A DNA stretch of 64,000 nucleotides from a virus, in the IMG/VR virus record IMGVR_UViG_3300030329_001736, positions 1 through 64,000 of that record; one strand, given 5' to 3'. The notes under the pieces are model-generated. The model had not been told where the DNA came from, searched no databases, and saw only the letters and a program-made list of their open reading frames with translations. Of this stretch, positions 1-42,182 are shown one piece after another. How positions within the stretch are numbered: the stretch's first letter is position 1; every line of letters starts with the position of its first letter. The translations under genes were made by a program, and so were the position numbers.

Positions 1-942
1 GGTAAAGTTCTTACGCTCGGCAGCGATGCTGGTAGCACACAGACGGCGATAAAATCTACGGGTCAGGAACGCATCAGGATTGACGACTCGGGCCGGGTTG
101 GGATTGGGACAAGTTCGCCAGATGCTAACTCAAAACTCGACGTTAATGGTCAAGTCATTGTACGCAACACTGGTGCTGGTGTGGATACGACTCCCGGCGG
201 TCAATACGGATTTTATATCCAGCCAGATAGCGGCGGTAACGTCAATTTGATGTCGTACAGCGGGGGCGGAGGCACTCAACTCAGGTTCTACACTAACGCC
301 GGTGCCGGTTCTGCTGCGGCAGAGCGCATGTCGATCAACTCCGCTGGCGCAGTTACGGTCCAAGGGGCGTTGTCCGCTGCCAATTTTAAAATCAACGGCG
401 CGCAAGGCAGCGATGGGCAGGTGCTAACGTCCACGGGTTCTGGAGTTGCATGGGAAGACGCAAGCGGTGGTGGTGGAGGTGGAGCCACATACGACGTAAT
501 CTATGCAGGAACGACGCCTTCTACGTCTACTTATATTGATTGTAACGGATATAAGTATATCAAGTGTATTGGGTTTATAACCAGTAACGCTTCAAACTCG
601 GGAGTAGGTGTATATACAAACACCTCTGGTGGCACAGTATCTTCGTCTCAAGGATATTGGTATCGAATTCAAGGGGGCAATACTAATGGTGTTACATATG
701 GTTCGTACAGTCCCTCTTCTGGGCAGGGTTATTTCGGGCACAACTCGACTGCCGATTATGTACTTACCACCGCTGAAGTGTTCGGTTTAGGCACTTCAAC
801 CCAGACGTTTCACAATACGGCCTGGGTTAAATCAGCCGGTACTATGATAGGACACTGGACCGGGAAAACTGCCTCCAGCTCATTAAGATATATTAAACCC
901 CATATGAGTTTCACTACATTCTACGTTATAGGAGTCAAGTAA
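1..942 (+). CDS. Tail fibre, C-terminal part (5'-truncated; frame open from base 1)
   Basis: Frame 1 is open from base 1. It has RIDxSGRVGIGTSSP fibre repeats and a GQVLTSTGSGVAW motif. Confidence 0.8.
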   Translation, partial: GKVLTLGSDAGSTQTAIKSTGQERIRIDDSGRVGIGTSSPDANSKLDVNGQVIVRNTGAGVDTTPGGQYGFYIQPDSGGNVNLMSYSGGGGTQLRFYTNAGAGSAAAERMSINSAGAVTVQGALSAANFKINGAQGSDGQVLTSTGSGVAWEDASGGGGGGATYDVIYAGTTPSTSTYIDCNGYKYIKCIGFITSNASNSGVGVYTNTSGGTVSSSQGYWYRIQGGNTNGVTYGSYSPSSGQGYFGHNSTADYVLTTAEVFGLGTSTQTFHNTAWVKSAGTMIGHWTGKTASSSLRYIKPHMSFTTFYVIGVK

Positions 943-1313
943 TGAGTACAGAAACGCTCGGCGTCTATAAGGTCGGAGATGAATGGAGTTTTGTAAAAGG
1001 TCCGGGTATAGAAGAGGTGTTAGCTAATGAAAATAGCGATGAATCCTTTATCTCTACCCTTACCTATACCGGAGAAGTTGATAATATCCAGTTCGACTTA
1101 ATCACGGTTAATGCAGACGAAACATTAACTTACAACCAAGATGAACACGATAAGAGGCTTGATTCTTTTAGGGAAACATATGCGGATAAACGGCGTGAAG
1201 ATTATCCTCCAATTGGCGACCAGCTAGACATGATCTACCACGCTGGTCAAGGCGGTGATGAGTTCCAAGCAGCAATCAAAGCTGTTAAGGATGCACACCC
1301 AAAGCCTTCGTAA
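942..1313 (+). CDS. Tail-fibre assembly/chaperone-like protein
   Basis: C-terminal YADKRREDYPPIGDQLDMIYH...VKDAHPKP motif, typical of genes that follow marine phage fibres. Confidence 0.6.
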   Translation: MSTETLGVYKVGDEWSFVKGPGIEEVLANENSDESFISTLTYTGEVDNIQFDLITVNADETLTYNQDEHDKRLDSFRETYADKRREDYPPIGDQLDMIYHAGQGGDEFQAAIKAVKDAHPKPS

Positions 1314-1354
1314 TAACTTAAACTTTGTAACCCAAGATAAGGATTAAAAAACAA

Positions 1355-1684
1355 ATGAGTACGACCTACGCATGGACATTCGACCTGCAAACCGCGACCT
1401 CTCCGGTCGATGGTAAAGATGACGTAATCAAGGAAATCCATTGGCGGTTTGTCGCCACCACTGACGATGACCCGCCACTTGCACCTAACGTGTATAGCAG
1501 CGTTGCACTTGGCGATCCTGACGACAGTTTTGTCGCATTTAACGATGTAACCAAAGAGATGTGCAGGGATTGGGTTCTTGCAGCTTGCGGCAAAACGGAA
1601 GACGAACTCATAGCTATGCTTGACCGACAAATTGCAGCAATTAAAACTCCTGCCCTGGCATCTAAAGTTCCTAGTAGTTGGTAA
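1355..1684 (+). CDS. Conserved fibre-associated protein (homolog of 44403-44732)
   Basis: DVIKEIHWR...F..F..VTKE...WV...P..W pattern shared with 44403-44732. Confidence 0.6.
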   Translation: MSTTYAWTFDLQTATSPVDGKDDVIKEIHWRFVATTDDDPPLAPNVYSSVALGDPDDSFVAFNDVTKEMCRDWVLAACGKTEDELIAMLDRQIAAIKTPALASKVPSSW

Positions 1685-1699
1685 TAGGAGAAAAAGGTA

Positions 1700-2572
1700 A
1701 TGGCGTTAACTAAAGTTACCAAAGATGTCTTAGGAGACAATGAAGTCGGCGCGGCGCATATTTCAGACAACTCCGTGAACTCTAGCGAGCTTGCAGACAA
1801 CGCTGTTACCTCTAGTAAAATTTCTGCAAACGCTGTTACCTCTAGTAAAATTTCTGCAAACGCTGTTACCGAGAGCAAAATTGCCAACAACTCTGTGAGC
1901 GGACAGAAAATCGCGATGGGCAGTGACGCCCAAGGCGATATCCTGTTCCGTGGGGCGAGCGGCTACGAGAGGTTGGCGAAGGGTGCCGCTGGACAAAAAC
2001 TCCAAATGAACAGCGGTGCAACCGCTCCAGAGTGGGCCGATGACAGCACATATCGGGCCGGGGAGGTCATCGAAGAAATTGCGCTCATTCAAAACGGTTC
2101 TAGCCAGACAGTTTTGAGCGGGACATATACCGCCGGAAACGTCACTGTGAAACAAGAACCCGGCGACACCTACGTCGATATGACTGGGAGTTCCATCAGC
2201 TATACACCGCCGTCATCTGCGTCACGGGTAGTCTACTCGTTGATTTTTTATGCGTCATACGCGAGCGGCGCGACCTCAATTGCTCATTTCAGACTTTATC
2301 TTGATAGCAATGAGGTGACGCGGGCACGCACATCATTCGGCGGTACTTACTTTGAAGGCGTGTATAACATCAGTTGGCCCTTTGAAATTGGAGGCTCTGC
2401 TAACACAACGACCGGGAAAGTTGCAAGCTGGTCGTCCGCAAAACAAATCAAGGTGCAGACGCGCAGGTCTTCGTCCAGTTATCCAATGAGGTTGCACGAA
2501 ACGTACAACTGGGATTCTTCTCCCAGCACGAACCTCCATCCACCAATCATTAACATTCGGGCAATCAAATGA
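1700..2572 (+). CDS. Secondary tail fibre / receptor-binding protein
   Basis: MALTKV start, NAVTSSKI shaft repeats, MGSDAQGDIL..G...RL.KG.AGQ.L motif, GEVIE-type head domain. Confidence 0.7.
   Translation: MALTKVTKDVLGDNEVGAAHISDNSVNSSELADNAVTSSKISANAVTSSKISANAVTESKIANNSVSGQKIAMGSDAQGDILFRGASGYERLAKGAAGQKLQMNSGATAPEWADDSTYRAGEVIEEIALIQNGSSQTVLSGTYTAGNVTVKQEPGDTYVDMTGSSISYTPPSSASRVVYSLIFYASYASGATSIAHFRLYLDSNEVTRARTSFGGTYFEGVYNISWPFEIGGSANTTTGKVASWSSAKQIKVQTRRSSSSYPMRLHETYNWDSSPSTNLHPPIINIRAIK
1799..1870 (+). repeat. 30-bp tandem repeat encoding NAVTSSKISA
   Basis: cgctgttacctctagtaaaatttctgcaaa occurs twice exactly (1801-1860), with partial flanking copies. Confidence 0.9.
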
Positions 2573-2724
2573 CCGATCCCAAAGCAATCACTGATTTAGC
2601 CGCCGCTGGAACAGGGTTGGCTACTGTATTCAGTTGGCTACCAGAGGTCGCAGCTTTATTCACAATTGTTTGGTATTTGTGGCGTTTCTTTGAGAAGATT
2701 AAAGATAAATGGTTAAAAAACTAG
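2569..2724 (+). CDS. Small holin-like membrane protein (51 aa, absent from ORF track)
   Basis: MTDPKAITDLAAAGTGLATVFSWLPEVAALFTIVWYLWRFFEKIKDKWLKN. ATGA overlap with the upstream gene, hydrophobic core, basic tail, T7 gp17.5 position. Confidence 0.65.
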   Translation: MTDPKAITDLAAAGTGLATVFSWLPEVAALFTIVWYLWRFFEKIKDKWLKN

Positions 2725-3017
2725 CAGCGTTCTCAGCAGCATTTCTACTGTTGATGTTCTCATGTAGCTGCACAAGTTACGCACAAGTAGCATGTGGCCC
2801 TCGCACAGACGTTGTTAAAAGGCTTGCCGAAAAATATCAAGAACTCCAAGTAGCAATGGGACTTAGTGTCACTGGTAAACTTGTAGAAGTCTTTGTTTCA
2901 AAGGAGGGTGCTTTTACAGTCCTTTTGTCAGAACCTAACGGCAAGTCTTGCATAGCAACAACAGGTCACAATTGGGTTACTGAAGGCTTTCCAGAGGTGC
3001 CGAAAGTTGGAACTTGA
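2709..3017 (+). CDS. Secreted/periplasmic small protein
   Basis: Signal peptide; C..R..V...L...Y.E.....G....VEVF.S..G.FT.....P.G..C pattern, recalled from alphaproteobacterial proteins. Confidence 0.55.
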   Translation: MVKKLAAFSAAFLLLMFSCSCTSYAQVACGPRTDVVKRLAEKYQELQVAMGLSVTGKLVEVFVSKEGAFTVLLSEPNGKSCIATTGHNWVTEGFPEVPKVGT

Positions 3018-3354
3018 TGTAAGGTTGTTGGTCACTCTAGGCGGCATGGCAGTCAGCGTGATCAGTAGTTTTGTTGTGGTTAAAACTAAACTTCAGCAAG
3101 TAGAAAAAGACATTAATGAGACATTCAACCGTATTTCTGGTCTAGATACTCGTCTAGATATTAACGATAAAAATACAGAAGTTACTAAACAAAGACTTGG
3201 TGTATTGGTCAGTATGATGTCTCCAGAGACTATGGAGAAACGTCATAGAGAAACTGAAAGAATGCAAGTGACTATTGATACTTTAGTCTCTGATGTTTCC
3301 TCATTAAAGAAGATGCATAATGGGGCGCACCCTGTAATCAAAGGTGGAAAATGA
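3007..3354 (+). CDS. N-terminal TM plus coiled-coil protein (lysis region; homolog of 60127-60498)
   Basis: TM helix, coiled coil, terminal MHNGAHP. Confidence 0.6.
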   Translation: MELDVRLLVTLGGMAVSVISSFVVVKTKLQQVEKDINETFNRISGLDTRLDINDKNTEVTKQRLGVLVSMMSPETMEKRHRETERMQVTIDTLVSDVSSLKKMHNGAHPVIKGGK

Positions 3355-3452
3355 AGTATGTAGAAGAGTTCTTTGATTATCTGTATTTCAAAATGTTTAA
3401 GAAGAAGCCTGGGGATGACATACCTAAATATCTATCGGGTAAGGGAAAATGA
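3351..3452 (+). CDS. 33-aa hypothetical protein
   Basis: ATGA overlaps at both ends; fills the gap in the operon. Confidence 0.45.
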   Translation: MKYVEEFFDYLYFKMFKKKPGDDIPKYLSGKGK

Positions 3453-3847
3453 TTGGACTTGTAACTAGCCTTCTACCTGTTGTCGGAAATGTACTAGATA
3501 GAGTACTTCCTGACACAGTTGAGAAGGACCGTGTAAAAGCAGAGCTACACTCTCAGATGCTTCAACACAGCGCGTCTATTGAGAAGGCTGCTGCTGATGT
3601 TGTGATTGCAGAAGCCAAAGGAGAAAGTTGGATTCAGCGGTCATGGCGTCCAATTACCATGATGTCTTTTGTCACAATAATCATAAACAATTACATTGCA
3701 GTTCCTTGGTTACAGACGCTTGGATATCCTGCTGTATCCCTAGAAGTCCCACCGGATATGTGGACTCTCCTTCAAATTGGTCTTGGAGGGTACATCGTGA
3801 GTCGCGGGGCAGAAAAGGGTATTAAGAACTGGAAGGATAAACCTTGA
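3449..3847 (+). CDS. 3TM holin-like protein (GTA holin family)
   Basis: AEAKGESWIQRSWRP...LGGYIVSRG.EK motif. Confidence 0.7.
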   Translation: MIGLVTSLLPVVGNVLDRVLPDTVEKDRVKAELHSQMLQHSASIEKAAADVVIAEAKGESWIQRSWRPITMMSFVTIIINNYIAVPWLQTLGYPAVSLEVPPDMWTLLQIGLGGYIVSRGAEKGIKNWKDKP

Positions 3848-4059
3848 AGACGCCAGAAGAGCTATTAGCAGATTTACACTCAGAGGTCGCTAAAGACCTC
3901 CTCAACAGAGTTAAGAGTGGGGAAGCCTCAAGTCAGGAACTTTCTGTTGCTGTGCGATTCCTAAAGGACAACAACATTGAGGCTCAGATGACTGAAAATA
4001 GCCCATTAGCACACCTGGTGGACTCATTACCCATATTTGATGACGAAAAACTGCACTAA
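3844..4059 (+). CDS. Terminase small subunit (T7 gp18-like)
   Basis: L..LH......LL.RVKSGEA...EL.VA..FLKDNNI motif; directly upstream of TerL. Confidence 0.85.
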   Translation: MKTPEELLADLHSEVAKDLLNRVKSGEASSQELSVAVRFLKDNNIEAQMTENSPLAHLVDSLPIFDDEKLH

Positions 4060-5845
4060 AAACCCCGAAATGCCCGCTAAGGCCCCTAGGAAGCCCACGC
4101 AGAAGAATAAGGGTGTTTCTGGGGGCAGGGTAGCCAAGGCATCGAAGAAGGCTACTCAGGAACGCTCTGAGGAGTCTGTTTCAGAAGATTTCAGGATGTT
4201 TCTCTTCTTGATCTGGAAACATCTCAGTTTACCACCCCCAACTCCGGTACAGTACAACATTGCAACCTATCTACAACATGGTCCAAAGCGATCTTGCGTA
4301 CAAGCATTTCGAGGAGTCGGTAAATCGTGGATTACCTCCGCATTTACGTTATGGACTCTCTACAGAAACCCCGAGACGAAAATACTCGTTGTCAGTGCGT
4401 CTAAGGAAAGAGCGGATGCATTTTCGACGTTTACTCTCAGACTTATTTCAGAGGTGCCATTTCTCAAGCACCTAAAACCCAAAGAAGAACAGAGAAGCTC
4501 CAAGATTGCCTTTGATGTAGGACCGGCAAAAGCCGCTCATGCCCCCAGTGTCAAATCTGTGGGAATCACAGGACAGCTAACAGGCTCCCGTGGCGACCTG
4601 ATCATCGCTGATGACGTTGAAGTTCCCAATAACAGTGCAACACAGCAGATGCGAGACAAGCTCAGTGAGCAAGTCAAGGAGTTTGACGCTGTGTTAAGCC
4701 CTGGGGGACGTATAATCTACTTAGGAACCCCTCAGACTGAAGACAGCCTGTATCAGGCACTGTCTGACCGTGGGTATGACCTGAGGGTTTGGCCCGCATT
4801 AAAACCTAGTGCCAAGGAAGAGGCGCAGTATGGGAATATGCTGGCTGATTTCATAAGTGATCTGCCAATGGAACCGGGTGATCCCACCGATCCTCTCAGG
4901 TTTGACACTGAAGACCTACTGGAACGCAAGGCATCCTACGGTAAAGCTGGGTTTGCCCTACAGTTCATGTTGAATACCCAGTTATCTGATGTTGAAAGGT
5001 ATCCGCTGAAGGTCAGGGATATCCTGTTCATGGCGTGTGACAAGACACTGGCACCCATGAAGATTGGCTGGGGGCCTGATGAGGACAGGCGGCTGAATAG
5101 TCTGCCTAACACAGCCATGAATGGGGATTACATGTATGCCCCCATGCATATCGACAGGGAACATGTGTCTGAATACACAGGGTCAGTCATGGCTATTGAC
5201 CCCTCAGGCAGAGGTCAAGATGAGACAGGGTACGCTGTGGTCAAGATGCTCAATGGGTATCTGTTTGTTGTAGCCTGTGGGGGACTCAAGGGGGGCTATG
5301 ATGACCAGACGTTACAGACACTGGCTGGACTTGCTAAGAGTCACTCAGTGAATTCTGTGATTGTCGAGAGCAACTTCGGTGATGGGATGTACACCAAACT
5401 GCTGATCCCTGTGATGAACAAGATACACAGGGTGATGATTGAAGAGGTGAGGCACAGTCAGCAGAAAGAGAAGCGCATCATAGACACCATAGAGCCTGTG
5501 GTAGCCAGACATAAGCTGGTGATCGATCCCAGTGTGGTCGAAGAGGACTACAGGAGTGCCCAGAAGTACGACCAGTCTGTCAGACTCAGTAAACAACTGA
5601 TCTACCAGATGACCAGGGTTACCTATGAACGTGGAGCCCTGAGACATGACGATAGGCTTGATGCATTGTCCATGGCTGTTGGCTACTGGGTAGAACAGAT
5701 GGCTAGAGATGAATCACTGGGTATATCAGAAGAGAGAGATAAGGCTTTGCAAGCTGAACTGGATGACTTTGCTGATATGGTGAGAAACCCAATGGTGAAC
5801 AGGAAACAAAACCAGCATACAAGACCACTGGTCTGGATGAATTAA
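4037..5845 (+). CDS. terL: Terminase large subunit (T7 gp19-like); start may be 4070
   Basis: QAFRGVGKSWIT Walker A, IIADDVE Walker B, IDPSGRG and HDDRLDAL nuclease motifs. Confidence 0.97.
   Translation: MMTKNCTKNPEMPAKAPRKPTQKNKGVSGGRVAKASKKATQERSEESVSEDFRMFLFLIWKHLSLPPPTPVQYNIATYLQHGPKRSCVQAFRGVGKSWITSAFTLWTLYRNPETKILVVSASKERADAFSTFTLRLISEVPFLKHLKPKEEQRSSKIAFDVGPAKAAHAPSVKSVGITGQLTGSRGDLIIADDVEVPNNSATQQMRDKLSEQVKEFDAVLSPGGRIIYLGTPQTEDSLYQALSDRGYDLRVWPALKPSAKEEAQYGNMLADFISDLPMEPGDPTDPLRFDTEDLLERKASYGKAGFALQFMLNTQLSDVERYPLKVRDILFMACDKTLAPMKIGWGPDEDRRLNSLPNTAMNGDYMYAPMHIDREHVSEYTGSVMAIDPSGRGQDETGYAVVKMLNGYLFVVACGGLKGGYDDQTLQTLAGLAKSHSVNSVIVESNFGDGMYTKLLIPVMNKIHRVMIEEVRHSQQKEKRIIDTIEPVVARHKLVIDPSVVEEDYRSAQKYDQSVRLSKQLIYQMTRVTYERGALRHDDRLDALSMAVGYWVEQMARDESLGISEERDKALQAELDDFADMVRNPMVNRKQNQHTRPLVWMN
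4096..4160. other. Conserved DNA element shared with 60511-60574 (strong-gyrase-site-like)
   Basis: 20/27 identity in the 5' block and an exact 15-mer agaaggctactcagg at near-identical spacing. Confidence 0.45.
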
Positions 5846-5851
5846 TATGGT

Positions 5852-5864: not shown

Positions 5865-5869
5865 GAATG

Positions 5870-11282: not shown

Positions 11283-11346
11283 GGTCTAATCCCTGTAATT
11301 CAACAACTATTATGTGTTTACAGGGCACAGCAAAATAGGGGTGAAA

Positions 11347-14877: not shown

Positions 14878-15277
14878 GCATGTAGGTTACCGCTTGGGCT
14901 TCCGCTCAGGCTTGGAAGAAAAAGTGGCGCACCAGTTGAAACATGCTGGTGTGCCTTTTCGTTACGAACATCGTGATGATCGAATTGAATATCTTAAACC
15001 AGCAAAAGTTTCGCGGTATCATCCAGACTTCTGCCTACCAAATGGCATTATAGTCGAAACTAAAGGGCGGTTCCTTACCGCTGATAGACAGAAACACTTG
15101 CTGATCCGAGACCAGCACCCAGACAAAGACATACGTTTTGTTTTCAGCAACCCGCGTCAGAGAATCTCTAAAACGTCTAAAACCACATACGCAATGTGGT
15201 GTGAGACGCATGGGTTTGAATACGCACATGCAACTATACCGGAGGGATGGCTACGAGAAGCGAGACGAACAAATTGA
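14810..15277 (+). CDS. Endonuclease I / Holliday junction resolvase (gp3-like)
   Basis: FRSGLEE, YHPDF, ETKGRF, DIRFVF. Confidence 0.95.
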   Translation: MPQRKSSRSTPKKKKTKKTQTSKHVGYRLGFRSGLEEKVAHQLKHAGVPFRYEHRDDRIEYLKPAKVSRYHPDFCLPNGIIVETKGRFLTADRQKHLLIRDQHPDKDIRFVFSNPRQRISKTSKTTYAMWCETHGFEYAHATIPEGWLREARRTN

Positions 15278-15690: not shown

Positions 15691-15693
15691 CGC

Positions 15694-17635: not shown

Positions 17636-17663
17636 TACCTGTAATCTGTAGGGGGATGACACA

Positions 17664-27820: not shown

Positions 27821-28441
27821 ATGGCAATTGTCACCCCAACCACAGAGCTAGAAGCCGTAAACATTATGCTCAGTATGATTGGAGAAAGCCCTGTAAATAC
27901 GTTGGAAGATGACAATGTTGTAGATGCAGCAATCGCAAGAAATATTTTAAGCAACACTAATAGAGAACTTCAAAGCATCGGGTGGAATTTTAACACTGAA
28001 ATAGGATACCCGATTCTTAAAGATAACGAAGGCAAGTTCCCTGTGCCTAGTAATACAGCAAGGATTGACACTGTTAATACCGTAGACTCAAGTTCCGCTA
28101 CGGATTACGACCTAGTTCTCAGGGGTAAATATTTATACGATAGAAAAAACCACACATATTCTCCAGATACAACAAAAGTCACTGTAGATATTGTAGTGAT
28201 GCTTGCTTTTGAAGACCTCCCTGAGACAGCCCGAAGATATATTACGTTAAAAAGCGGCAGGATGTTTGGTGAACGGCATCTGGGGGCTGTGGTTACAGAC
28301 ACTTCACAACGAGATGAAGCCCTTGCTTATGCGGCCTTGAAAAATGATGAAGTGTGGACGGGCGATTACAACATGATTAAAGACGATATAACCCCTCTAA
28401 ACATTGTACGTCGCTTTGGGTTCGACAGGGGCGTTTATTAA
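27821..28441 (+). CDS. Tail tubular protein A (gp11-like)
   Basis: TELEAVN.ML..IGESPV, GWNFNTE, FEDLPE..R.YI. Confidence 0.93.
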   Translation: MAIVTPTTELEAVNIMLSMIGESPVNTLEDDNVVDAAIARNILSNTNRELQSIGWNFNTEIGYPILKDNEGKFPVPSNTARIDTVNTVDSSSATDYDLVLRGKYLYDRKNHTYSPDTTKVTVDIVVMLAFEDLPETARRYITLKSGRMFGERHLGAVVTDTSQRDEALAYAALKNDEVWTGDYNMIKDDITPLNIVRRFGFDRGVY

Positions 28442-31768: not shown

Positions 31769-34152
31769 TGGCACCTAGATCAAAGATTGCAGTTCCTGAT
31801 GTCAGGAGAATGCGGAATCTCTTATCCCCTGTAGATACTTATGTTCAGACCAAGCCGCAATACACATCTGATGCGTATGATGATAAATCCAAAGCTTTAG
31901 CGGAGTTGAAGAAAGCTCTCGGTGTCGCTCAGGCAGAAAATAAAGAACAAGAGAAAATCTGGCAGAAGAAGAAAGACAAGGAAGACAAAGCCGCAGCAAC
32001 AAGAGCGGCAATGTTGCAAAAATTAGGCGACGGAAACCTTGATGCTGTATCTGGTGAAAGACTGCACCCAGAACAAAGCGAGTTGTTTCATGATGTTTAC
32101 AACGAGAAACTGGGAAACATACACGCAACAAAATGGCAAAGGTCGCTTTTAGAAAAATATGAAAAAGAAAAAGGTGCGATTTTCGACATTCCGTCTTGGC
32201 TATCGGGTGAAACACAGACCTATCTTAATTCTCTAGGAGAAAACCCTAGTTATATTGCTGGGGCATATCCAATTATTCAACAGGTTTCTGCAAATCTAGT
32301 TTCTAGTCACGTTAAGTATAAACGTGAAGTTAATCATAATAATATGAAAGTGGCTTTGGCTCAGGTTTGGTCAAACGCCTATGGTGACCATACCCGCGAC
32401 CCAGCGAAGGCAATTGAACAAAACTGGAAGGACTTACAAATTGCAATTGTTTATGGCACCACCGGGCAAGATCGCGTAACTCTAAGGAGTGATTTCTTTA
32501 CCCATGCAATTTCCAGTGCAGAATCCATGGACCCTAGCAGAGGAATTCTATTACTTAACGCTTTAAAACAACTTGGCGTCAACAAACAGTATGTTCTTAA
32601 AGAACAGACCCCTGATGGAATTCGTAGCACCCCTACCGGATTGAGTTCAAAAGAGTTGTTAGCCGTAGAAAATGCCATAGATAATCTAGAACAAGAAGAT
32701 CGCAAACAGAGAGACCTTGATAGGGATATTAGAACAAACTTAATAGCCGACAATACAGCTAAAGCAATTGCTGCATTTACGGAGTATAGGTTTCAACTGG
32801 GATCAAAAATCCCAACCCTTGCAGATAAAAGAGCTTGGATTACGAAATACAAGAAAGCCAACAAGCTTGATGTAAACAACTTTGACATTGGTAAATGGGA
32901 ATCGACAGTAGACGCACGGATCAGTAATGATCAAACCGCAATTGAACATCAAGCCAGAGGTCCTCTTATTAGCGATGCTGAAAAAGCTATACGAACTAGC
33001 AAAGCAACGGGAGAAGCGCTGGCGGCGTTCCATGTAACAGGAAGTAATCGTCAAGAAGATGTTGAGAAAGAAGTTACGAAAGTATTAGCTAAGTATCCAC
33101 ACGCAAACCCTGCCGTAATACGCGCCGCGCTTCTAAGGTCTATGTCCGGTACTGGCGTACACGCACAGATTAACAAATTTCAGAAATCTACAGACAAGCT
33201 GTTTAAAGTATTTGGTTATGATTCTATGGGATATTCAACGGCATTGGGAGTATCTATTGCTGCCAATTTTCATTCCGAGTTAGTTGAGATAGAAAAAACA
33301 TTGGAAAATACTCCCGGCATAACGCAGATTAGTTACGGCGGGGAAGTTTATCATACAGATAAAAAAATCGGAATTTTGAACCTTCGGGATGCAATATTAG
33401 AAAGTGTTTTTAAAGAAGCTGTAGAGGACAGTACACACCTACAGACAATATTGAAAGGTCCGAACGATCCAGAAAACAAAGACGACTGGAATTCAGTAGA
33501 TTCAATTAATAAGGTTTCAAAAAAGACAATCTATGAGGTATTGACAAGATACGGAGTCGGTACACCAGTAGTAGAAGAAGAAAAAGCAGCCGACCCAGCC
33601 GCTGAATTATCTGACGCTGCAAAGGTTATATATGAGAGTAAATTAAAAGATCAAATTGCTAAAAACGCCGGAAAACCGGTATTGGATAAGACTAAACGGA
33701 TGCTTGCGTTCGCCGCAGCGAAAGAAGCGGAAAAAGCGTCTTCTAACATACCGTCGAAGCCCAGTGAAAGCCCCTTAAATATTGATTCAGGAATTAACGA
33801 TCTGTTAAAACAATATGGATCAGATAGTGAACGGGAATTCAAATCCACAGCAGGGAGGGGAACTCAAGGTCAACGTCTTACTGCTGAACAAATAGATAAC
33901 TTCCTTGATTTCCTTGTCAAAGTTGGCGCGGCAGGGTTGTACAAATCAGAAGATGTGTTTGACGGAGCGCAAAATAGGCGTGAGAAAGTAGACACTAAGA
34001 AAACAGAGGTTCCTTTAAACACAGAAACACAAAAAGAACTATTCAATAGGTTCTTTGATTTAACCAGAATGGGAATGCGGGCCGCATACTTTGATGCTCT
34101 GTGGAATCAAGTAGAACAAAGATTATTAAATACAGGAATGGGCAATGAGTGA
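31768..34152 (+). CDS. Internal virion protein (gp15-like)
   Basis: Size, position and helical composition. Confidence 0.65.
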   Translation: MAPRSKIAVPDVRRMRNLLSPVDTYVQTKPQYTSDAYDDKSKALAELKKALGVAQAENKEQEKIWQKKKDKEDKAAATRAAMLQKLGDGNLDAVSGERLHPEQSELFHDVYNEKLGNIHATKWQRSLLEKYEKEKGAIFDIPSWLSGETQTYLNSLGENPSYIAGAYPIIQQVSANLVSSHVKYKREVNHNNMKVALAQVWSNAYGDHTRDPAKAIEQNWKDLQIAIVYGTTGQDRVTLRSDFFTHAISSAESMDPSRGILLLNALKQLGVNKQYVLKEQTPDGIRSTPTGLSSKELLAVENAIDNLEQEDRKQRDLDRDIRTNLIADNTAKAIAAFTEYRFQLGSKIPTLADKRAWITKYKKANKLDVNNFDIGKWESTVDARISNDQTAIEHQARGPLISDAEKAIRTSKATGEALAAFHVTGSNRQEDVEKEVTKVLAKYPHANPAVIRAALLRSMSGTGVHAQINKFQKSTDKLFKVFGYDSMGYSTALGVSIAANFHSELVEIEKTLENTPGITQISYGGEVYHTDKKIGILNLRDAILESVFKEAVEDSTHLQTILKGPNDPENKDDWNSVDSINKVSKKTIYEVLTRYGVGTPVVEEEKAADPAAELSDAAKVIYESKLKDQIAKNAGKPVLDKTKRMLAFAAAKEAEKASSNIPSKPSESPLNIDSGINDLLKQYGSDSEREFKSTAGRGTQGQRLTAEQIDNFLDFLVKVGAAGLYKSEDVFDGAQNRREKVDTKKTEVPLNTETQKELFNRFFDLTRMGMRAAYFDALWNQVEQRLLNTGMGNE

Positions 34153-37100
34153 CGCCTTTAACCTTGACGAAGAAACCAAACAAACAATTGAGTTACTAAA
34201 ATCGGACCCAGAACAGTACACTGAGATTTTTGATTCTTTGTACGGAAAGGGGATGTCTGCACAAGTTTTAGGCCAGCAGGATGCATTTTCAGTGTCCGAA
34301 GTAACAGCCCCACCGGAGACAGAGGATGATGGGGGAGCGTGGTTTGAAGTGGGAGACACGATACAGGGTGTTGCCCACGGTGTTGCTAAGGCAGGAGAGG
34401 CTATTATGAGCCTTGCTGACACACCGGCTCAGTGGCTCAGTGAGAATGTCGGTACGGTCACAATGTTTGATCCAGTAACCGGGGAATTTGACCCCCAAAT
34501 ATTATCTGGAGAAGAAGTAACAGAGTACATCAAACAGGGCGGGTCCACTGATTTTGGAAATGCTGCTAGTGACCTCATTGGAGCCCCAGATACTGTAGTA
34601 GGAAGCGGGGTGTCTGGCATTACACAGTTTGTTGTTGGCTGGGTCGGGCCTGGTAAGTTTGCCAAAGCTGCAACTTTTATAAAAGCAGGAACAGCACACG
34701 CAGCTAAGAAAAAAGGATTATCCAAAGCTGCCACAACACGGGCTGTACAGAGGGCTGAACGGCAGTTTAATCCGACTAAGAAATTCCAAGTAGCGGAAGG
34801 TATGGTGCGGGGAGCTATCGCTGACTTCACCGCGTTTGAAGGGTCTGACGGAAACCTTTCAAATTGGCTCCATGAAATGGGAGTGGATAACGCGATAACA
34901 GAAGGGTTAATGACTAACCCTGAAGATGGCGAGCTTATCAACAGAATGAAGACAGCACTAGAAGGCGTGGTGCTAGGGGGAATGATTGAAGGCGTCATCC
35001 TTGCATTCAGGGCACGAAGCCACTTGATGAAAGGCAATGCTGAAGAAGCCAACACACTTGCAACTGAAGCAGAAACGTCACTTAAAGACGGAGCGGCCAA
35101 GGAACAAGAAGCTTTGGGTGCCAGAGAGCAAGAGGCAATGGACGGCACCCCAGCCCCAAAGGAAATCAACGACAATCCTGATTTAGAGGAAGTGACCTTT
35201 AGACACTATGACGCTGAAGGAGAGACACCGCTATTTCCAGAGACTGCCTCAGAACGTGCAGCTAGGAAGCTAAACGAACAAGAGGACATTCGCAGCTATA
35301 ACGAAAGCCTGAGAAACCCTAACAGTCCCCACTTCAAGGGCACACAGGAATTAGCGGATACTATATTGCACGGCTCTGGTATTCGTATGCAACAAACGGG
35401 AGAATCGTTTGATCCTCAAACATTTGGAGGAGATCGTGCGAAGCAAGCCGCTAACTTCTCTAGGCGCCTTCGCATTGTAACAGACGATGATGATATTCAG
35501 GACGTTTTAATAACTGTAGGGCAGCGGCTTGAAGATGAATTCAAAATTCTCAAAGGTGGGGATGTACAAAGCCACGTTGAAGTCAGACAACGATTAAACG
35601 GATACGCGACCACACTCGCGAAGCTGTACAAAGAATCTCCTAAAAAGTTATTAGATAGGTTCAGTGAGTTATCTCCCGGTGACTATACCAAACTCGCTGC
35701 TGATCTTGCTGCTAAGTCCCAATTTGCGGACACACTTGCGAAACATATAGCCCAGACGGCAAGGACTTGGACCAGTTTCAAAGAAGGTGTAATCGATGAA
35801 GATAGATTGAAGGAGCTTGGCTTTGAGTCAAAAGAAGATTTTAAGCTGCAATCGATGGCTATGGTTGAACTATACGGCAATCTTGAAGGGATTGTAAGGG
35901 GACAAGTCACAGCAGTAGCCCGTGCATTGAACGCACAAAAGATGAGTTACAAAGAAGGGACCATGCTTAACAAGGCTCTGATTGCAAAAATGGGCCGATC
36001 TGAGTCTGCGATGACTGCATACTTTAGGGATGTTGTTGAAGCGTCGAATGCGGGGGGTCACAGGAATATCCCAAGTCCAAAAGACATTGCATCTCGTTGG
36101 GACCGTCTTAACAGTTTGCGAATTAACTTTATGCTGTCTGGCCCAAACACCCAGATAATAAACACCGTATCAAACTTTATGAACATGAACCTGTTGCCTA
36201 TGGAACAAGCAATGGGTGGAGCGGTGGCTGGCGACCGACAGGAAATCATGCGCGGCATAAGGCAACTAGGAGCCACCTATGGTTCTATGTGGAACGCCAT
36301 GAAAATGGCCGCAAGGGCACTCAAAGAAGACCAGACCATTCTTGATCAGTTAAACAAGGTGGAACAAGACGAGCTTCAGCAGGGAATATTTGGGGGAGAG
36401 AAAGTCTCGTTTTCTAACATTGCTGAGTTCAAACGGACAGGAAAAAGTGTAAGAAACTGGGCGAACCTTACGACCACCCTGCCTTCACGGTTGCTGTTGT
36501 TTTCCGATGAATTCTTTAAACAGGCGACCTACAGCGGAAAGCTACATGCTGATCTATGGGTAGCAGGGCAAAAGGAAATAGCAGATGGGAAGCTTACAAA
36601 AGACAAGTTAACGGATTGGATAAACACCAAGGCAAAAGAAGCTTACGACCCAGAAACAGGTGCGGCAGTTGCAACAACAAAGGCAGGGGCGAAACTAAGC
36701 CCGCACTCAAAAGCGGCATTGGATATAGCAAGGGAATCCACCTTTACCACAGAATTAGATGGATTTTTTGCAACGATACAAGCACTGGCTATCAAATATC
36801 CAGCCGCAAGGTTTGTCCTTCCGTTTGTCAGAACCCCAACTAACTTGCTTTTAGCCACTTGGCGACGCGCCCCTGGCGTTAACTTGGCGAGAAAACAGGG
36901 GAAGATTCGACGCGATCTAAGAAGCAGCGACCCCTCAATTAGAGCGCAAGCCCGTGGAAAAATATTCACTGGCTGGGCAATAACAGGAGTTGCTGGATTT
37001 CTTGCACACAGTGGAATCATTACAGGTTCTGGACCGAGCAACCCAAAAGACAAGAAAGAACTGATGGCTACTGGGTGGCGTCCTTATAGCATCCGAAGGG

Positions 37101-38053
37101 AGAATCCTGATGGGACGTTCTCATACATTCCATACCAGAGATATGAGCCCTTATCTAATTTCCTAGGTATTGCCGCTGATTTATATGAATTACAAAAAGA
37201 AGCCTTACTAGAAGGTAGGAAAGGGGAGGAAGACCGCGTTGAAGATATTGTATTAGGTCTTATTACTGCGATTAGTGAAAACACAATTAACAAAACGTAC
37301 ATGCGCGGCCTCAGTGATTTTATGGAAGCGTTGATTAGCCCTGAAAGGTCTTTTGAACGAGTTGCTGCTGGTGTTGTAAAAAGCTTCAGTCCAAACATTA
37401 TCAACCAATTAAATAACGATCCGTATCTAAGAGAAACCAGAAGTATTCTTGATGGGCTTCGGTCTGCTTGGAATACAGAATTAGGCGGTATGGCAGCACC
37501 GCGAAAACGAAACGCTTTGGGAGAGCCCATCCTTAGACAGACTTCTAAAGCACACCCTTTTACAGCATCTGAGCGCGATCCTGATGATATTGTACTGAAT
37601 GAACTTGCAGCTATCGCTCAGTACACAGGTAAAACCTTTGGTCTTCCGTCTGACAGAAGGATGGGGACAAACAAAGATTTCTCTCTGGTGCCGCTAGAAG
37701 ATGGAATGTCTGTCTTTGAAACTTATCTGGATGATATACACACTTTAAAAATAGGGGGTAAGACGCTAAGGCAGCGTTTAGAGAGGTTAATCTCTAGTCC
37801 TTCTTATCAAAAACTCTCCCCAGGAAGTCGTGATTTTAAAGACGGCCCAAGAGTTGAGCGTCTACAGAGTTTGATCAATACTTACAAGAAAACTGCCAGA
37901 AAGAAACTGTTTGCTAAAGGGCGATCTTCAACTGCGCCTGAAGGTTTACGGATGTTCTACCAAGAATCTAGAAAATTTCTAAAAGATGAAGCAGCGACAA
38001 AACGCGGGGGTCCACCGAAAGAGTTCAAAGATTTAATACTGAGGCGAAACTGA
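34145..38053 (+). CDS. Internal virion protein (gp16-like)
   Basis: 1302 aa; DEFFKQ, PFVRTPTN, GW.PYS, Y.RYEP motifs typical of this position. Confidence 0.8.
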   Translation: MSDAFNLDEETKQTIELLKSDPEQYTEIFDSLYGKGMSAQVLGQQDAFSVSEVTAPPETEDDGGAWFEVGDTIQGVAHGVAKAGEAIMSLADTPAQWLSENVGTVTMFDPVTGEFDPQILSGEEVTEYIKQGGSTDFGNAASDLIGAPDTVVGSGVSGITQFVVGWVGPGKFAKAATFIKAGTAHAAKKKGLSKAATTRAVQRAERQFNPTKKFQVAEGMVRGAIADFTAFEGSDGNLSNWLHEMGVDNAITEGLMTNPEDGELINRMKTALEGVVLGGMIEGVILAFRARSHLMKGNAEEANTLATEAETSLKDGAAKEQEALGAREQEAMDGTPAPKEINDNPDLEEVTFRHYDAEGETPLFPETASERAARKLNEQEDIRSYNESLRNPNSPHFKGTQELADTILHGSGIRMQQTGESFDPQTFGGDRAKQAANFSRRLRIVTDDDDIQDVLITVGQRLEDEFKILKGGDVQSHVEVRQRLNGYATTLAKLYKESPKKLLDRFSELSPGDYTKLAADLAAKSQFADTLAKHIAQTARTWTSFKEGVIDEDRLKELGFESKEDFKLQSMAMVELYGNLEGIVRGQVTAVARALNAQKMSYKEGTMLNKALIAKMGRSESAMTAYFRDVVEASNAGGHRNIPSPKDIASRWDRLNSLRINFMLSGPNTQIINTVSNFMNMNLLPMEQAMGGAVAGDRQEIMRGIRQLGATYGSMWNAMKMAARALKEDQTILDQLNKVEQDELQQGIFGGEKVSFSNIAEFKRTGKSVRNWANLTTTLPSRLLLFSDEFFKQATYSGKLHADLWVAGQKEIADGKLTKDKLTDWINTKAKEAYDPETGAAVATTKAGAKLSPHSKAALDIARESTFTTELDGFFATIQALAIKYPAARFVLPFVRTPTNLLLATWRRAPGVNLARKQGKIRRDLRSSDPSIRAQARGKIFTGWAITGVAGFLAHSGIITGSGPSNPKDKKELMATGWRPYSIRRENPDGTFSYIPYQRYEPLSNFLGIAADLYELQKEALLEGRKGEEDRVEDIVLGLITAISENTINKTYMRGLSDFMEALISPERSFERVAAGVVKSFSPNIINQLNNDPYLRETRSILDGLRSAWNTELGGMAAPRKRNALGEPILRQTSKAHPFTASERDPDDIVLNELAAIAQYTGKTFGLPSDRRMGTNKDFSLVPLEDGMSVFETYLDDIHTLKIGGKTLRQRLERLISSPSYQKLSPGSRDFKDGPRVERLQSLINTYKKTARKKLFAKGRSSTAPEGLRMFYQESRKFLKDEAATKRGGPPKEFKDLILRRN
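37202..37214 (+). promoter_or_regulatory. Possible phage RNAP promoter upstream of the fibre gene (phi17-like)
   Basis: GCCTTACTAGAAG, one mismatch, within a CDS. Confidence 0.35.
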
Positions 38054-38054
38054 C

Positions 38055-41000
38055 ATGGCTAATGCATCCCACATTATACAGGCAAGCAGTGTGGATGGGA
38101 CAACGAATACATTCAATATTCCGTTCTCATACATCAGTGAAGATCATCTTGCATTTTATGTAGATAATGTTTTAACAACGGATTCTTCATCTCTCTACAC
38201 CGCCACTGTACTTACAGGTGGGACCACGGTTCAGATTGTTAAGACTTCAGATTCTTCTAATCCTAACAATGTCACAATTAAACTTGAACGTAACACTCCT
38301 ATAAGCACAGCCAGTGTTGTCTTCTCAAATTCCTCTACACTTAAAGCGTCTGATCTAAACACCAGTAATAACCAGTGGCTTTACGCAGCCCAAGAAGCCG
38401 CTGACGATGCTGCTGAAGCCATCCGCCTAGACGCTGCCGGGGTATACGATGCCAATAGTACAAAAATAACAAATGTAACTGACCCCACAGCCGCCCAAGA
38501 CGCTGCGACGAAAAACTATGTGGACACTGCTGGCGACTCTAAGGTCGCGCAGGCCGCCGCCAGTGCAACAAGTGCAGCTAATAGTGCTACAGCAGCGGGG
38601 CAGTACGCCGGAACCCAGAATGTTGATACCTTCAACGGAACTGGGTCACAAACTGCCTTTACTTTGTCTGCTTCCCCTGCAACAGAGAACAACACTCTCG
38701 TTACGATTTCGGGAGTAGTGCAGCACAAAAGCTCGTACTCCCTTAGTGGAAACACGCTAACCTTTTCGTCACCACCAGCGGCAGGAACCGGGAATATTGA
38801 GGTCGTTCACTTATCGCTTTTGTCGATAGCGAATCTTGATGAAGACCTATCCTCTACATCGTCGGCACACGATTCGATCCCTTCGGCTAAAGCTGTAAAG
38901 AGCTATGTGGATACGCAGGTCGATACGGTCGATACGTTGGCTGAGGTGTTAGCGAACGGCAACGGAACCGGCGGCAACGACATTGCTGTTGGTGCGAACG
39001 ACGACATAACTCTGGTTGATGGAGCAAACATTAAGTGGGGAACGGGTGGAGACGGTCTAGGAATCTACCACAATGGCTCGAACAGCTACATCACCGAGAT
39101 TGGTAATGGTACGGGCAACCTGTTTGTACTCGCCACGGACCTGACGCTCGGTGACAAGGGAAATCAACATCATTACGCGCATTTTGTCAGCGGCGGCGAA
39201 GCAAAGCTGTTTTACGACAATGGGTTGTCATTTGAGACGACCAGCGGCGGCGGTAAAGTTTATGGCGACTTACAGATCACTGGGGGCGACATTGAGCTTG
39301 GCAGCAGCAACGATACGACCATCTCGCGGGCGTCCGCTGGCGTCGTAACCATCGAAGGGCAGACTGTTCGCACTGGCACTGTTGGAATCTCGGACGGCGG
39401 AACCGGCGCGACGACTGCGGCTGCGGCAGCGACCGCGCTGGGTGTTGGCGCTGGGTCCAATGTTACATTTCATGGGCTGACAACGACCGGTAACGCAAGC
39501 ATTGATGGCGCGGTCACGGTAAACAACTCCGGTGCAGATGCCGATTTCCGGGTCGAAACATCTGGCAATGCAAACATGCTGTTTGTCGATGGCGGCACCA
39601 ATCGCGTCGGCATAGGCACAGGCTCGCCAAACCAGTTACTCGCTGTCAACGGATCGGATGGCGCGACGAACATGATGTTGCAATCCGGTGGCACTTATCG
39701 GCTCGGATTCTACAACGACTCATCGCAACAGCGTCTCTCAACCTATGGCTCGCCTACTACGGCCCTGACCTTCGCGATCCAAGAAAGCGAAAAGATGCGG
39801 GTTTCGGCTAATGGGAAAATCGCAATCGGCGGCCAGACCGCTGACGGCCCGCTGCACGTTTTTAACGGGTCTGCGGGCAGTGTGACAGCCGCCACGGGCG
39901 CGGAAACAATTGTTGCTGAAGCTGGCGGACATGGGGGGGTGTCTATCCTGACTCCCCAGACCCACACCGGCTACCTCACGTTCGGGTCGCCCACCGCATC
40001 TACTCGCGGTTTTGTCAGTTATGAACACAACAACGACGCTATGGCGATCCAAGTCGCTGGCGGCGAAGCCATGCGGATCAACTCGTCTCGCAACGCGACG
40101 TTTGCCGGGAACGAAATCAAAGTTGGCGACAACAACGCTGCTGGCGGCAACTACGATTCCGTGTTGCACTTGCTCGGAGATTCGTCCAGCGGCTTTAAGT
40201 TAAGCACCAACAGCGGCAACAGCGCCTTCAATATTGAGCGCGAATATTACGGCTGGCAAGGCGGGCTGACGATGAAACGCGACACGGGAAATATCGGAAT
40301 TGGCTGTTCCGACCCCGGTGCGGAGCTTGAAATTGCTGGGGATTATCAACCGCTTATCGTCAATAGCACGAACAGTAGCATCCCCAAGATTGTCCTTGAA
40401 GACAATGGCTCGGCGCGAGGATATTTAGGAGCCGGTTCGGGGCACCCGCTCGTCGTCAGTGCCAGTAACGGATCAAACAAATATTTCTTCAGCGATTTGA
40501 ACGGACACAGCTACTTCCAGATTGCCGCCAGCAGCACAGCGGGTAGCGGCGCTGGGGGTGCCTACATCAAAGCGACAGGCAGTGCCGCTTCTGGACCGCC
40601 ACAGATAGCTGGCATTGACTTGTCGATGACGGACGGAACCGATGGCAGTGAGAGCGGAATCATTGCTTTCCACACGACGAATAGTGGTACTTCCTCCGAG
40701 AAAGTTAGGATAACGTCATCGGGGCTAGTCGGTTTGGGAGTAGCGGCACCAACCGAGGAGCTACACATTAAAGCGTCGGCTCCCACGATCAGGCTGGAAG
40801 ATTCCGACAACAATCTATCTGGCTACATCAATGGGGATAATGGAAATGTCCTCATCCAAAGTTACAACGCAAACCGAGATATTATTTTCGGCGAAAACGC
40901 TGCCGGTGGTGAGATCATGCGCGTCACTGGGCTGGGGTCCGTCGGGATTGGCACTTCGGCACCCGGCGCAGAACTTGAAATTGCTGGGGATTATCAACCA

Positions 41001-42182
41001 CTTATCGTTAATTCGACGAACAGCAGTGGTGCCAAAATTGTCTTTGAAGACAACGGTGTGACGAGAGGTTATATCGGCGGCGCGTCTAGCATGCCAGTAA
41101 CATTTTACAACTCTAGTGCCACATTGCTTGGCGGCTTCGACACTAACGGCAGATTTGGAATTGGTACTTCGACGCCAACATCTCCTCTAACTGCCCACGG
41201 ATATACTAGTGGTGTTGGTGTTATCTACGGTAACGCTGGTGCAGCATCACAGCACTTAATAACACTAACAGACGGTGTTGCGACCAACTTTTCTATCGTC
41301 ACTAGTGGTACAGTTCTTACTCTTGGGTCAGATGCTGGAAGCAATCAAACGGCCATAAAATCTTCGGGGGTCGAGGCAATACGGATCGATTCCTCGCAGC
41401 GGGTCGGGATTGGTACTTCGACGCCAGATAGCAATCATAAATTAGAAGTGTACAGCACAGGTACTACCGAAGTAGCAATCCGAAGCGGAAACAGTTCTGA
41501 GGCAATCATTAATTTTGGAGATGTCGCTAGTCGTTTACGAGGTCGAATAGCGTATAACAACAGCAGTGAATACCTAGCTTTTTGGGCTAATGCTGGTGAA
41601 AAGATGCGAATTGATTCATCTGGTAACTTAATCGTAAAACCAGCTAGTTCAAGTCAGACTATCAGCGTTGAAGCGTCGGGCGGCGGCGCAAAAATTGAAA
41701 TGCAAGCTGATGGTGGTACACTCACAACAGTAGGCAGCACGAACAATGTGCCGACTGCTATTCAAGCTAATAGCAGTGAAGCTGTGAGGGTTTTAACGGA
41801 TGGAAAAGTTGGAATTGGCACAACCTCACCTTCAGCAAAACTTGAGGTAAACGGAACAGTATTGGCGTCTACTGACACTGATACAAGTAACACTGGAAGT
41901 GTGACGCTAGACTTTTCTGCTAATCAAAACTTTGTCCTGACTCTCACAGGTAATGTTACACTAGCCAACCCATCCACAGAACAAGTTGGTCAGGCTGGCG
42001 TGATGGTCTTTATTCAAGACGGAACGGGGTCCAGAACCCTGAGTCTCGGATCGGACTACGAGACGGCTGAAGGGGCTGGCATTACGCTTAGCACCGCTGC
42101 TAATGCGGTTGATATTGTTCCGTATTTTGTTAAGGCTTCTGGCTCGATTCAACTCGGCGCACCACAACTGGCGTTTAGTTAA
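38055..42182 (+). CDS. Long tail fibre with T7 gp17-type N-terminal anchor
   Basis: F.IPFSYI...R.TP....V.F.....L...DLN..Q..Y.AQE anchor; many RI.S.G.VGIGT repeats; C-terminal QDGTGSRTL domain. Confidence 0.9.
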   Translation: MANASHIIQASSVDGTTNTFNIPFSYISEDHLAFYVDNVLTTDSSSLYTATVLTGGTTVQIVKTSDSSNPNNVTIKLERNTPISTASVVFSNSSTLKASDLNTSNNQWLYAAQEAADDAAEAIRLDAAGVYDANSTKITNVTDPTAAQDAATKNYVDTAGDSKVAQAAASATSAANSATAAGQYAGTQNVDTFNGTGSQTAFTLSASPATENNTLVTISGVVQHKSSYSLSGNTLTFSSPPAAGTGNIEVVHLSLLSIANLDEDLSSTSSAHDSIPSAKAVKSYVDTQVDTVDTLAEVLANGNGTGGNDIAVGANDDITLVDGANIKWGTGGDGLGIYHNGSNSYITEIGNGTGNLFVLATDLTLGDKGNQHHYAHFVSGGEAKLFYDNGLSFETTSGGGKVYGDLQITGGDIELGSSNDTTISRASAGVVTIEGQTVRTGTVGISDGGTGATTAAAAATALGVGAGSNVTFHGLTTTGNASIDGAVTVNNSGADADFRVETSGNANMLFVDGGTNRVGIGTGSPNQLLAVNGSDGATNMMLQSGGTYRLGFYNDSSQQRLSTYGSPTTALTFAIQESEKMRVSANGKIAIGGQTADGPLHVFNGSAGSVTAATGAETIVAEAGGHGGVSILTPQTHTGYLTFGSPTASTRGFVSYEHNNDAMAIQVAGGEAMRINSSRNATFAGNEIKVGDNNAAGGNYDSVLHLLGDSSSGFKLSTNSGNSAFNIEREYYGWQGGLTMKRDTGNIGIGCSDPGAELEIAGDYQPLIVNSTNSSIPKIVLEDNGSARGYLGAGSGHPLVVSASNGSNKYFFSDLNGHSYFQIAASSTAGSGAGGAYIKATGSAASGPPQIAGIDLSMTDGTDGSESGIIAFHTTNSGTSSEKVRITSSGLVGLGVAAPTEELHIKASAPTIRLEDSDNNLSGYINGDNGNVLIQSYNANRDIIFGENAAGGEIMRVTGLGSVGIGTSAPGAELEIAGDYQPLIVNSTNSSGAKIVFEDNGVTRGYIGGASSMPVTFYNSSATLLGGFDTNGRFGIGTSTPTSPLTAHGYTSGVGVIYGNAGAASQHLITLTDGVATNFSIVTSGTVLTLGSDAGSNQTAIKSSGVEAIRIDSSQRVGIGTSTPDSNHKLEVYSTGTTEVAIRSGNSSEAIINFGDVASRLRGRIAYNNSSEYLAFWANAGEKMRIDSSGNLIVKPASSSQTISVEASGGGAKIEMQADGGTLTTVGSTNNVPTAIQANSSEAVRVLTDGKVGIGTTSPSAKLEVNGTVLASTDTDTSNTGSVTLDFSANQNFVLTLTGNVTLANPSTEQVGQAGVMVFIQDGTGSRTLSLGSDYETAEGAGITLSTAANAVDIVPYFVKASGSIQLGAPQLAFS
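40326..40999 (+). repeat. Internal duplication in the fibre gene
   Basis: Exact 26-mer cttgaaattgctggggattatcaacc at 40326 and 40974, within a roughly 45-aa duplicated module. Confidence 0.85.

Follow-up and report, generated by a model that had tools for sequence, protein, structure and literature searches.

Tail-fibre modules are exchanged horizontally between unrelated phages, for example among the fibre genes of P2, Mu, lambdoid and T-even phages. Viral metagenome assemblies can contain chimeric or concatenated contigs, and assembly tools have been studied on simulated viral communities (PMC3901335). Among cultured phages, the Roseobacter phages CRP-118, CRP-804 and CRP-403 have genomes of 40.6-41.6 kb, and the ten isolates that include them range from 38.9 to 42.6 kb with 44.6-50% G+C (PMC11092137). 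The HTVC023P-type pelagiphages (bioRxiv 10.1101/2019.12.14.876532) and DSL-LC04 are podovirus-like, and the genomes of HTVC023P, HTVC027P and DSL-LC04 measure 57.6-61.5 kb. I analysed an IMG/VR contig of 100,092 nt that carries two phages, each of which has distant relatives among marine phage isolates. The window covers the first 64 kb (64,000 nt) of this contig. Base 1 of the window is the true contig start and lies inside a 5′-open fibre ORF, and the 3′ end of the contig sits within a 3′-open fibre ORF (97521-100092). In summary, this record is very probably a composite contig of two separate marine podovirus genomes and not one replicon.

Judging from gene content, bases 1-40914 are a T7-like (Autographiviridae) phage of ~41.1 kb with a G+C of 0.48. 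This part has a single-subunit RNA polymerase, the T7 gene order and a Phage_T7_tail fibre, and it matches phrog_414 at 5e-205. All of the genes described here for it lie on the plus strand. The contig opens with the 3′ part of the T7-like fibre gene (1-942), a 5′-open stretch of 313 aa which is 100% identical to residues 326-638 of the protein P0001 and to 976-1917 of the Tara contig L112 (CEUZ01075685.1). Upstream of the matching residues, both P0001 and L112 carry a T7-type fibre. The fibre accessory genes (942-2572), which have PHROG and Pfam matches and directly adjoin the fibre gene on both L112 and L113, comprise a 123-aa ORF, a 109-aa DUF7936 protein (1355-1684) and a 290-aa fibre-like protein (1700-2572). 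The late genes at 2709-5845 (phrog_3427, 6e-32; phrog_38, 4e-121) are small ORFs, a holin (3449-3847) and the large terminase (4037-5845). The genome body, including the early genes, extends from 6195 to 38053 by PHROG matches and encodes the RNA polymerase (11314-13836), a primase/helicase (15694-17310), a DNA polymerase (17664-19430), a portal/adaptor (23467-25104), a major head protein (26782-27750), a tail protein (28441-30762) and an internal virion protein (34145-38053). The 5′ part of the fibre gene (38055-40895) encodes the Phage_T7_tail N-terminal domain (PF03906, 1e-25, residues 1-160) and shaft modules.

The T7-like part resembles CRP-118, CRP-804 and CRP-403 in its gene order, its single-subunit RNA polymerase, its closed size of 41.1 kb and its G+C of 0.48, and its terminase is 64-66% identical to those of the three roseophages. 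In CRP-118 and in the relative L026, gp16, fibre, lysis genes and terminase follow one another as they do here, and in L026 gp16, fibre and terminase are contiguous. The kinship is distant, however, and neither junction region had a megablast match among the GenBank phages. The internal virion protein yielded no relatives when searched. The fibre of the T7-like phage (1326 aa, as inferred) is longer than those of the CRP phages and differs in its distal part.

Bases 40896-99995 of the contig are a podovirus of ~59.1 kb with a G+C of 0.39 (phage 2), which may be a distant relative of the HTVC023P type. The 3′ part of its own fibre gene lies at 40915-42182 on the plus strand. Residues 980-1375 of the fibre ORF of the contig (fibre A) are identical to residues 858-1253 of P0133 (396/396), which is complete at 1253 aa and comes from a contig of 5,971 nt. 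The phage-2 fibre accessory genes (42182-44732, plus strand) encode a 550-aa virion protein, a 167-aa fibre-assembly-like protein and a 109-aa DUF7936 protein (44403-44732), the last of which is 94% identical in a stand-alone relative, G001. In the rest of phage 2 in the window (44756-64000), tail and ejection proteins are encoded on the plus strand up to 60498 and a replication block on the minus strand starts thereafter. Phage 2 runs on to 99995 and encodes a terminase, a portal and a head protein of its own. G001 matches phage 2 to either side of the fibre (83292-98723 and 44386-51054) at 93-99% nucleotide identity and is without the T7-like insert. The CheckV estimates for relatives of phage 2 are ~58-59 kb, and the size of phage 2 is similar to those of the HTVC023P-type phages and DSL-LC04. 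Its 627-aa virion protein, the one protein compared, is 32-35% identical to their counterparts. In contrast to the HTVC023P type, the close relatives of phage 2 are known just as metagenomic contigs, such as G001.

Is this a single phage genome of 100 kb with two fibre genes? CheckV rates the record 100% complete, which would fit such a genome. However, every hallmark gene is present twice, in two divergent sets: the contig holds two each of the large terminase, portal, head protein, primase/helicase and DNA polymerase, and identity within the pairs of replication proteins is 23-44%. The G+C steps by nine points, from 0.477 in the T7-like part to 0.390 in phage 2. The two halves were told apart by G+C and gene content in place of tetranucleotide profiles; the late T7-like region has a tetranucleotide correlation of 0.77-0.84 with phage 2, and the halves are not cleanly separated by this measure. 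Moreover, each half corresponds to a known group of phages whose genomes are of that half's size, and each closes on itself, as described below. A single genuine genome is thus next to impossible.

The two phages share sequences in their fibre genes. The translations of 1-144 and 41307-41450 (plus strand) form the same 48-aa module, with 37/48 residues identical, no gaps and E = 8e-25. At the nucleotide level these copies are ~75% identical and have zero exact 12-mers in common. A second common patch of 139 nt lies at 41172-41310 (plus strand), where the contig aligns with L112 841-979; it has two mismatches relative to the T7-like parent and an 89-nt exact run inside. Contig base 1 aligns to 41307, at the end of this patch. 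The Tara fragment P0126 stops 45 nt into the same patch, and L113 begins 45 nt short of the end of the exact run. The accessory genes at 1355-1684 and 44403-44732 are paralogues as well (both DUF7936 / phrog_7802, 30% identical, E = 3e-8). The sequence-only reading had described the 48-aa module, a whole T7-like genome between its copies with lysis and terminase genes after the first, different fibre genes and an AT-richer phage after the second, and the paralogous accessory genes. All of these hold. The stretch between the copies, taken with 1-5845, carries a full T7-like gene set, the holin and terminase lie within 3449-5845, and the G+C beyond 42182 is 0.39 against 0.48.

Each of the two genomes closes on itself in independent assemblies. 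Positions 1-796 of L112 are identical to window 40119-40914 (796/796). After the equivalent of 40914, L112 carries 179 nt that are missing from the contig, then joins base 1 and matches window 1-2870 with six mismatches. The link in L112 from the T7-like fibre via these 179 nt to base 1 gives the T7-like genome a closed length of 41,093 nt. In L113, window 1-3370 is present at 100% identity and is preceded by a further 91 nt, and the proteins P0001 and P0126 have the same T7-like fibre junction as L112. As for phage 2, the first 857 residues of P0133 are identical to the contig-end fibre ORF at 856 positions. Since P0133 is the contig-end fibre ORF plus residues 980-1375 of fibre A, phage 2 closes at 59,100 nt, and a terminal overlap of 97 nt, described below, closes it as well.

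These closures bear on the proposal of the sequence-only reading that one reciprocal crossover between the fibre genes of two co-infecting phages gave a circular cointegrate of ~100 kb. The genomes are indeed joined in a common fibre module, and the contig starts and stops in fibre sequence. A cointegrate, however, predicts a second hybrid junction, in which the 5′ part of the phage-2 fibre passes through a 19-nt stretch common to both phages (40896-40914) into a T7-type continuation. The contig has one hybrid junction where two are required. Its final 97 nt (99996-100092) are an exact repeat of 40896-40992, the stretch on the plus strand that starts the phage-2 circle, and beyond the 19 nt the contig 3′ end stays parental phage 2 for 78 nt. 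Both parental junctions are attested in other assemblies, and the sign named in advance as speaking against a cointegrate, a link from the fibre starting at 38055 back to base 1, was found in L112, P0001 and P0126. A genome of 100 kb is too large for podovirus capsids sized for ~41 kb or 59 kb. The two different phages and the homologous fibre modules stand, while a true cointegrate is highly improbable.

Where does the contig pass from one phage to the other? By alignment, the contig equals L112 through 40914 and equals its own 3′ end from 40896 onward. Thus, the switch is placed within 40896-40914 and not at 41307, and this is the sole non-parental adjacency in the whole contig. In a three-way alignment, the contig and both parents, T7-like and phage 2, agree at all of these 19 nt (plus strand). 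Two other geometries were rejected. A figure-of-eight via an exact repeat of 314-411 nt (40896-41306) is out, since the T7-like parent L112 diverges from the contig at 40915. Site-specific integration is also out; the junction interrupts the fibre gene, keeps the homologous register and is not at a genome end.

In the composite contig favoured here, the path starts on a circularly assembled T7-like genome just past the common fibre patch (base 1), follows this genome to the fibre gene and crosses into phage 2 within 40896-40914. It then circles phage 2 once and ends 97 nt past the point of re-entry, giving the shape of a tail with a loop. The join was probably made in assembly and not in a cell. 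Common de Bruijn assemblers use word sizes above 19 nt. Because perfect identity at the junction is just 19 nt, below the assembler word size, simple repeat collapse fails as an explanation, and the longer 89-nt common run was not used as the switch site. The sequence-only reading had named mis-assembly through a shared repeat as an alternative, which is the correct one. Candidates for the join are scaffold gap-closing across the tangled common fibre patches or a thin link from chimeric reads. As in known chimeric viral contigs, two genomes from the same sample are joined at similar sequence, and the joined sequence exceeds each genome in length and has hallmark genes in duplicate. Unlike in the usual cases, the switch falls on 19 identical nt and not on the 89-nt run, so that simple repeat collapse is not the full explanation.

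It is possible, though unlikely, that the hybrid junction at 40896-40914 exists as real DNA and formed in vivo. In co-infected cells, homology-guided strand invasion within the fibre modules might have recombined the T7-like genome with a phage-2 concatemer that was being replicated, or a viable T7-like variant might have gained the distal fibre cassette of phage 2. In either case the assembler would have followed a real link, and the 100-kb unit itself need not exist. The switch keeps the reading frame and the homologous register. It falls on one of the longest exact matches that the two genomes share, flanked by ~85% identity over 54 nt. As 19 nt is below the usual word sizes for graph collapse, hybrid reads would be a natural source. 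The MetaClust fragment P0125 starts exactly at 40896, which may reflect that a second assembly branches there, and an earlier exchange of fibre patches between both phages is clear from the 89-nt exact run. On the other hand, the hybrid 1375-aa fibre is recorded on this single contig and on no other, while both parental fibres occur in several assemblies. No shorter database protein crosses the hybrid junction at 100%, and exact-pattern scans for the common fibre stretch gave zero matches in viral contigs and zero in metagenome contigs. The absence of the hybrid adjacency from independent assemblies is weak evidence for a composite contig. L112 and L113, essentially identical to this T7-like strain, show the parental junction or its 3′ part, and no second junction back to the T7-like backbone is seen in the contig. 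Template switching in library amplification, or gap-closing, yields the same sequence. A T7-like variant with the 257-nt segment of phage 2 between both common patches was also considered and rejected; no database protein supports it, and L113 differs from the phage-2 copy at 5/91 positions before base 1. If the junction did form in vivo, the contig would capture a T7-like, roseophage-type genome that is joined to an unrelated HTVC023P-like podovirus or bears its receptor-binding end, in the ocean data sets where both parents occur. Fibre-module exchange from one phage family to another would then have been caught directly, and both phages would be shown to infect the same cells.

For the composite contig, the consequence is that a public viral record with a completeness score of 100% in fact combines two genomes. 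Such a record would distort the analyses of genome size, gene content, clustering and host prediction that use it. The near-identical fibre patches that the two unrelated phages have in common are real, ordinary tail-fibre mosaicism. As in the classical cases, they lie within otherwise unrelated fibre genes, similarity decays at their flanks and paralogous accessory genes are found downstream. The differences are that the partners here are two marine podovirus groups and that both parental alleles occur in the same ocean data sets. The patches, together with the DUF7936 genes common to the T7-like phage and phage 2, suggest a recent horizontal exchange of fibre modules between them, and the patches hint at the same host or receptor for both phages. 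A common host, if so, could guide the host assignment of the uncultured phage 2 lineage.

The IMG/VR record is 100,092 nt in length (class linear, CheckV completeness 100%), of which the window covers 1-64000. Since the window starts at base 1 of the record, base 1 is a real contig end. Three fibre ORFs were found: a 5′-open ORF of 313 aa at the contig start (1-942), a complete ORF of 1375 aa (38055-42182; fibre A), and a 3′-open ORF of 857 aa at the contig end (97521-100092). The features on which the sequence-only reading was built were all confirmed. The same 48-aa fibre module occurs twice without gaps (37/48 identical, E = 8e-25); the nucleotide identity of the two coding stretches is only about 75%, with no exact 12-mer in common. 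A full T7-like gene set lies within 1-40914, and different fibre-associated genes follow 3′ of 42182 (a 550-aa virion protein, a 167-aa assembly-like protein, and a 109-aa DUF7936 protein). The two accessory genes regarded as paralogous both encode 109-aa DUF7936 proteins (30% identical). The second phage (phage 2) is AT-richer, with a G+C content of 0.39 vs 0.48 in the T7-like part, and the part beyond the window encodes a large terminase, portal, head protein, primase/helicase, and DNA polymerase of its own.

When the 313-aa ORF at base 1 was used as the query, P0001 was retrieved, a 5′-truncated database protein of 638 aa in three parts. Residues 1-265 are exactly fibre A residues 689-953, the next 60 residues have no counterpart in the contig, and the last 313 residues are exactly the translation of window 1-942. 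Its DNA is the Tara contig L112 (CEUZ01075685.1; 3,846 nt). L112 1-796 matches window 40119-40914 with 0 mismatches, the next 179 nt are missing from the contig studied here, and L112 976-3845 corresponds to window 1-2870, differing at 6 positions. Another Tara contig, L113, extends 91 nt 5′ of base 1 and is 100% identical to window 1-3370 thereafter, and P0126, a named gene from TARA_125 (0.1-0.22 µm), has the same T7-type junction as P0001 and L112. Thus, the T7-like genome is a unit of 41,093 nt, whose fibre would be 1326 aa in length. The sequence-only reading had named reads linking the fibre at 38055 back to base 1 among the signs of an assembly chimera, and P0001 and L112 provide this link. 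The Roseobacter phages CRP-118, CRP-804, and CRP-403, with genomes of 40.6-41.6 kb, have terminases that share 64-66% identity with that of the T7-like part. Ten isolates including these three have genomes of 38.9-42.6 kb with 44.6-50% G+C (PMC11092137). In CRP-118 and a metagenomic relative, gp16, the fibre, small genes, and the terminase form a single run.

Self-comparison revealed that the last 97 nt of the contig (99996-100092) are identical to 40896-40992, while upstream of this identity the similarity falls (about 93% across the last 151 nt, lower beyond). Thus, phage 2 forms a closed circle of 59,100 nt from 40896 to 99995. This closure is confirmed by P0133, a complete 1253-aa protein encoded on a 5,971-nt contig of another assembly. 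Its first 857 residues match the contig-end ORF (856/857) and its remainder matches fibre A residues 980-1375 (396/396), which assigns the 3′ third of fibre A to phage 2. G001, a close stand-alone IMG/VR relative of phage 2 (24.9 kb), shows nucleotide identity of 97-99% to 83292-98723 and 93% to 44386-51054. Between these two blocks it has just a 1.9-kb fibre-distal region and no T7-like insert. A size of 58-59 kb follows from the CheckV estimates for relatives of phage 2, and the distant isolates HTVC023P, HTVC027P, and DSL-LC04 are 57.6-61.5 kb. Within the 97-99% identical flanks, two genes differ wholly between phage 2 and G001: one in the terminase-portal interval (contig 85652-87385 vs G001 2973-4406) and one before the fibre (contig 94934-96307 vs G001 11948-12934). 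Both look like further swap-prone cassettes.

Homology between the two phages extends to their replication modules (T7-like, window 14747-22811; phage 2, contig 65397-76351 on the minus strand). Identity is 38-44% for the primase/helicase, the DNA polymerase, and two further, unannotated proteins, and 23% for a fifth pair. Phage 2 therefore combines a T7-type replication set with virion genes unrelated to those of the T7-like phage. Each phage also has a small paralogous protein (window 3007-3354 and 60127-60498; 24% identical, E = 2e-12), just 3′ of which lies an exact 15-mer common to both genomes (4146-4160 and 60560-60574). The C-terminal, phage-2 tip of fibre A (residues 1282-1365, window 41898-42150) and the C-terminal end of a separate 308-aa phage-2 protein (46954-47880) share 39% identity; phage 2 thus seems to have two proteins sharing a tip-domain type. 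Short tandem or near-tandem direct repeats were found by self-comparison in fibre-like and ejection-protein genes (window 1799-1870 and 50626-51100; contig 72762-72841 and 98460-99098).

The join was dissected by a three-way alignment of the contig, the T7-like parent (L112), and the phage-2 parent (the contig's own 3′ end). The contig is identical to L112 up to 40914 and to the phage-2 parent from 40896 on. Since both identities overlap, the switch lies within a 19-nt stretch common to both parents, in frame and in homologous register. Another, longer patch common to both phages spans 41172-41310 (139 nt, 2 mismatches vs L112, including an 89-nt exact run), and contig base 1 aligns to its end at 41307. 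Tara fragments break near the edges of this patch; P0126 ends 45 nt inside it, and L113 starts 45 nt short of the end of the 89-nt run. The contig can therefore be traced as the T7-like genome, short of just the 179 nt that separate its two patches, then a full circuit of phage 2, then another 97 nt; it has a single non-parental adjacency. Within the contig, the two genomes have no longer exact match than a 26-nt repeat in the fibre region (40326-40351 and 40974-40999), with one copy in a T7-type and the other in a phage-2-type module; the contig's 3′ end falls within the second copy.

The join is best read as an assembly composite. The sequence-only reading was right that two phages meet in their fibre modules, but its simple cointegrate, formed by a reciprocal single crossover, does not hold. 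That model needs a T7-type contig 3′ end after the 19 nt, and it fails because the end runs on in phage-2 form for 78 nt; a true cointegrate is thus extremely improbable. Real recombinant DNA, with the hybrid junction made in vivo, is unlikely, if less so. Among database protein records the hybrid 1375-aa fibre is found in this contig alone, and no shorter database protein spans the hybrid junction at 100%. A possible branch at 40896 in another assembly is suggested by the MetaClust fragment P0125, whose start coincides exactly with this position. As for how the junction may otherwise have arisen, common de Bruijn assemblers use words longer than 19 nt, and the 89-nt run is not the switch site; plain repeat collapse is therefore inadequate. 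Scaffold gap-closing across the tangle of common fibre patches may be one source, and the names under which related Tara contigs are recorded would fit pieces derived from scaffolds. Chimeric library molecules may be another, formed where a template switch occurred in flanks of 85-93% similarity.

Two unrelated podoviruses have fibre patches and downstream DUF7936 genes in common. G001 has a different arrangement of these modules, in which an 81% match to fibre A residues 1107-1192 is followed by an 83% match to residues 23-99 of the ORF at 1-942. Such sharing is classical tail-fibre mosaicism, known since comparisons of P2, Mu, and lambdoid phages. The main value of these results is that the record should be flagged as a probable composite; the module sharing, which may reflect a host or receptor used by both phages, is also worth noting.
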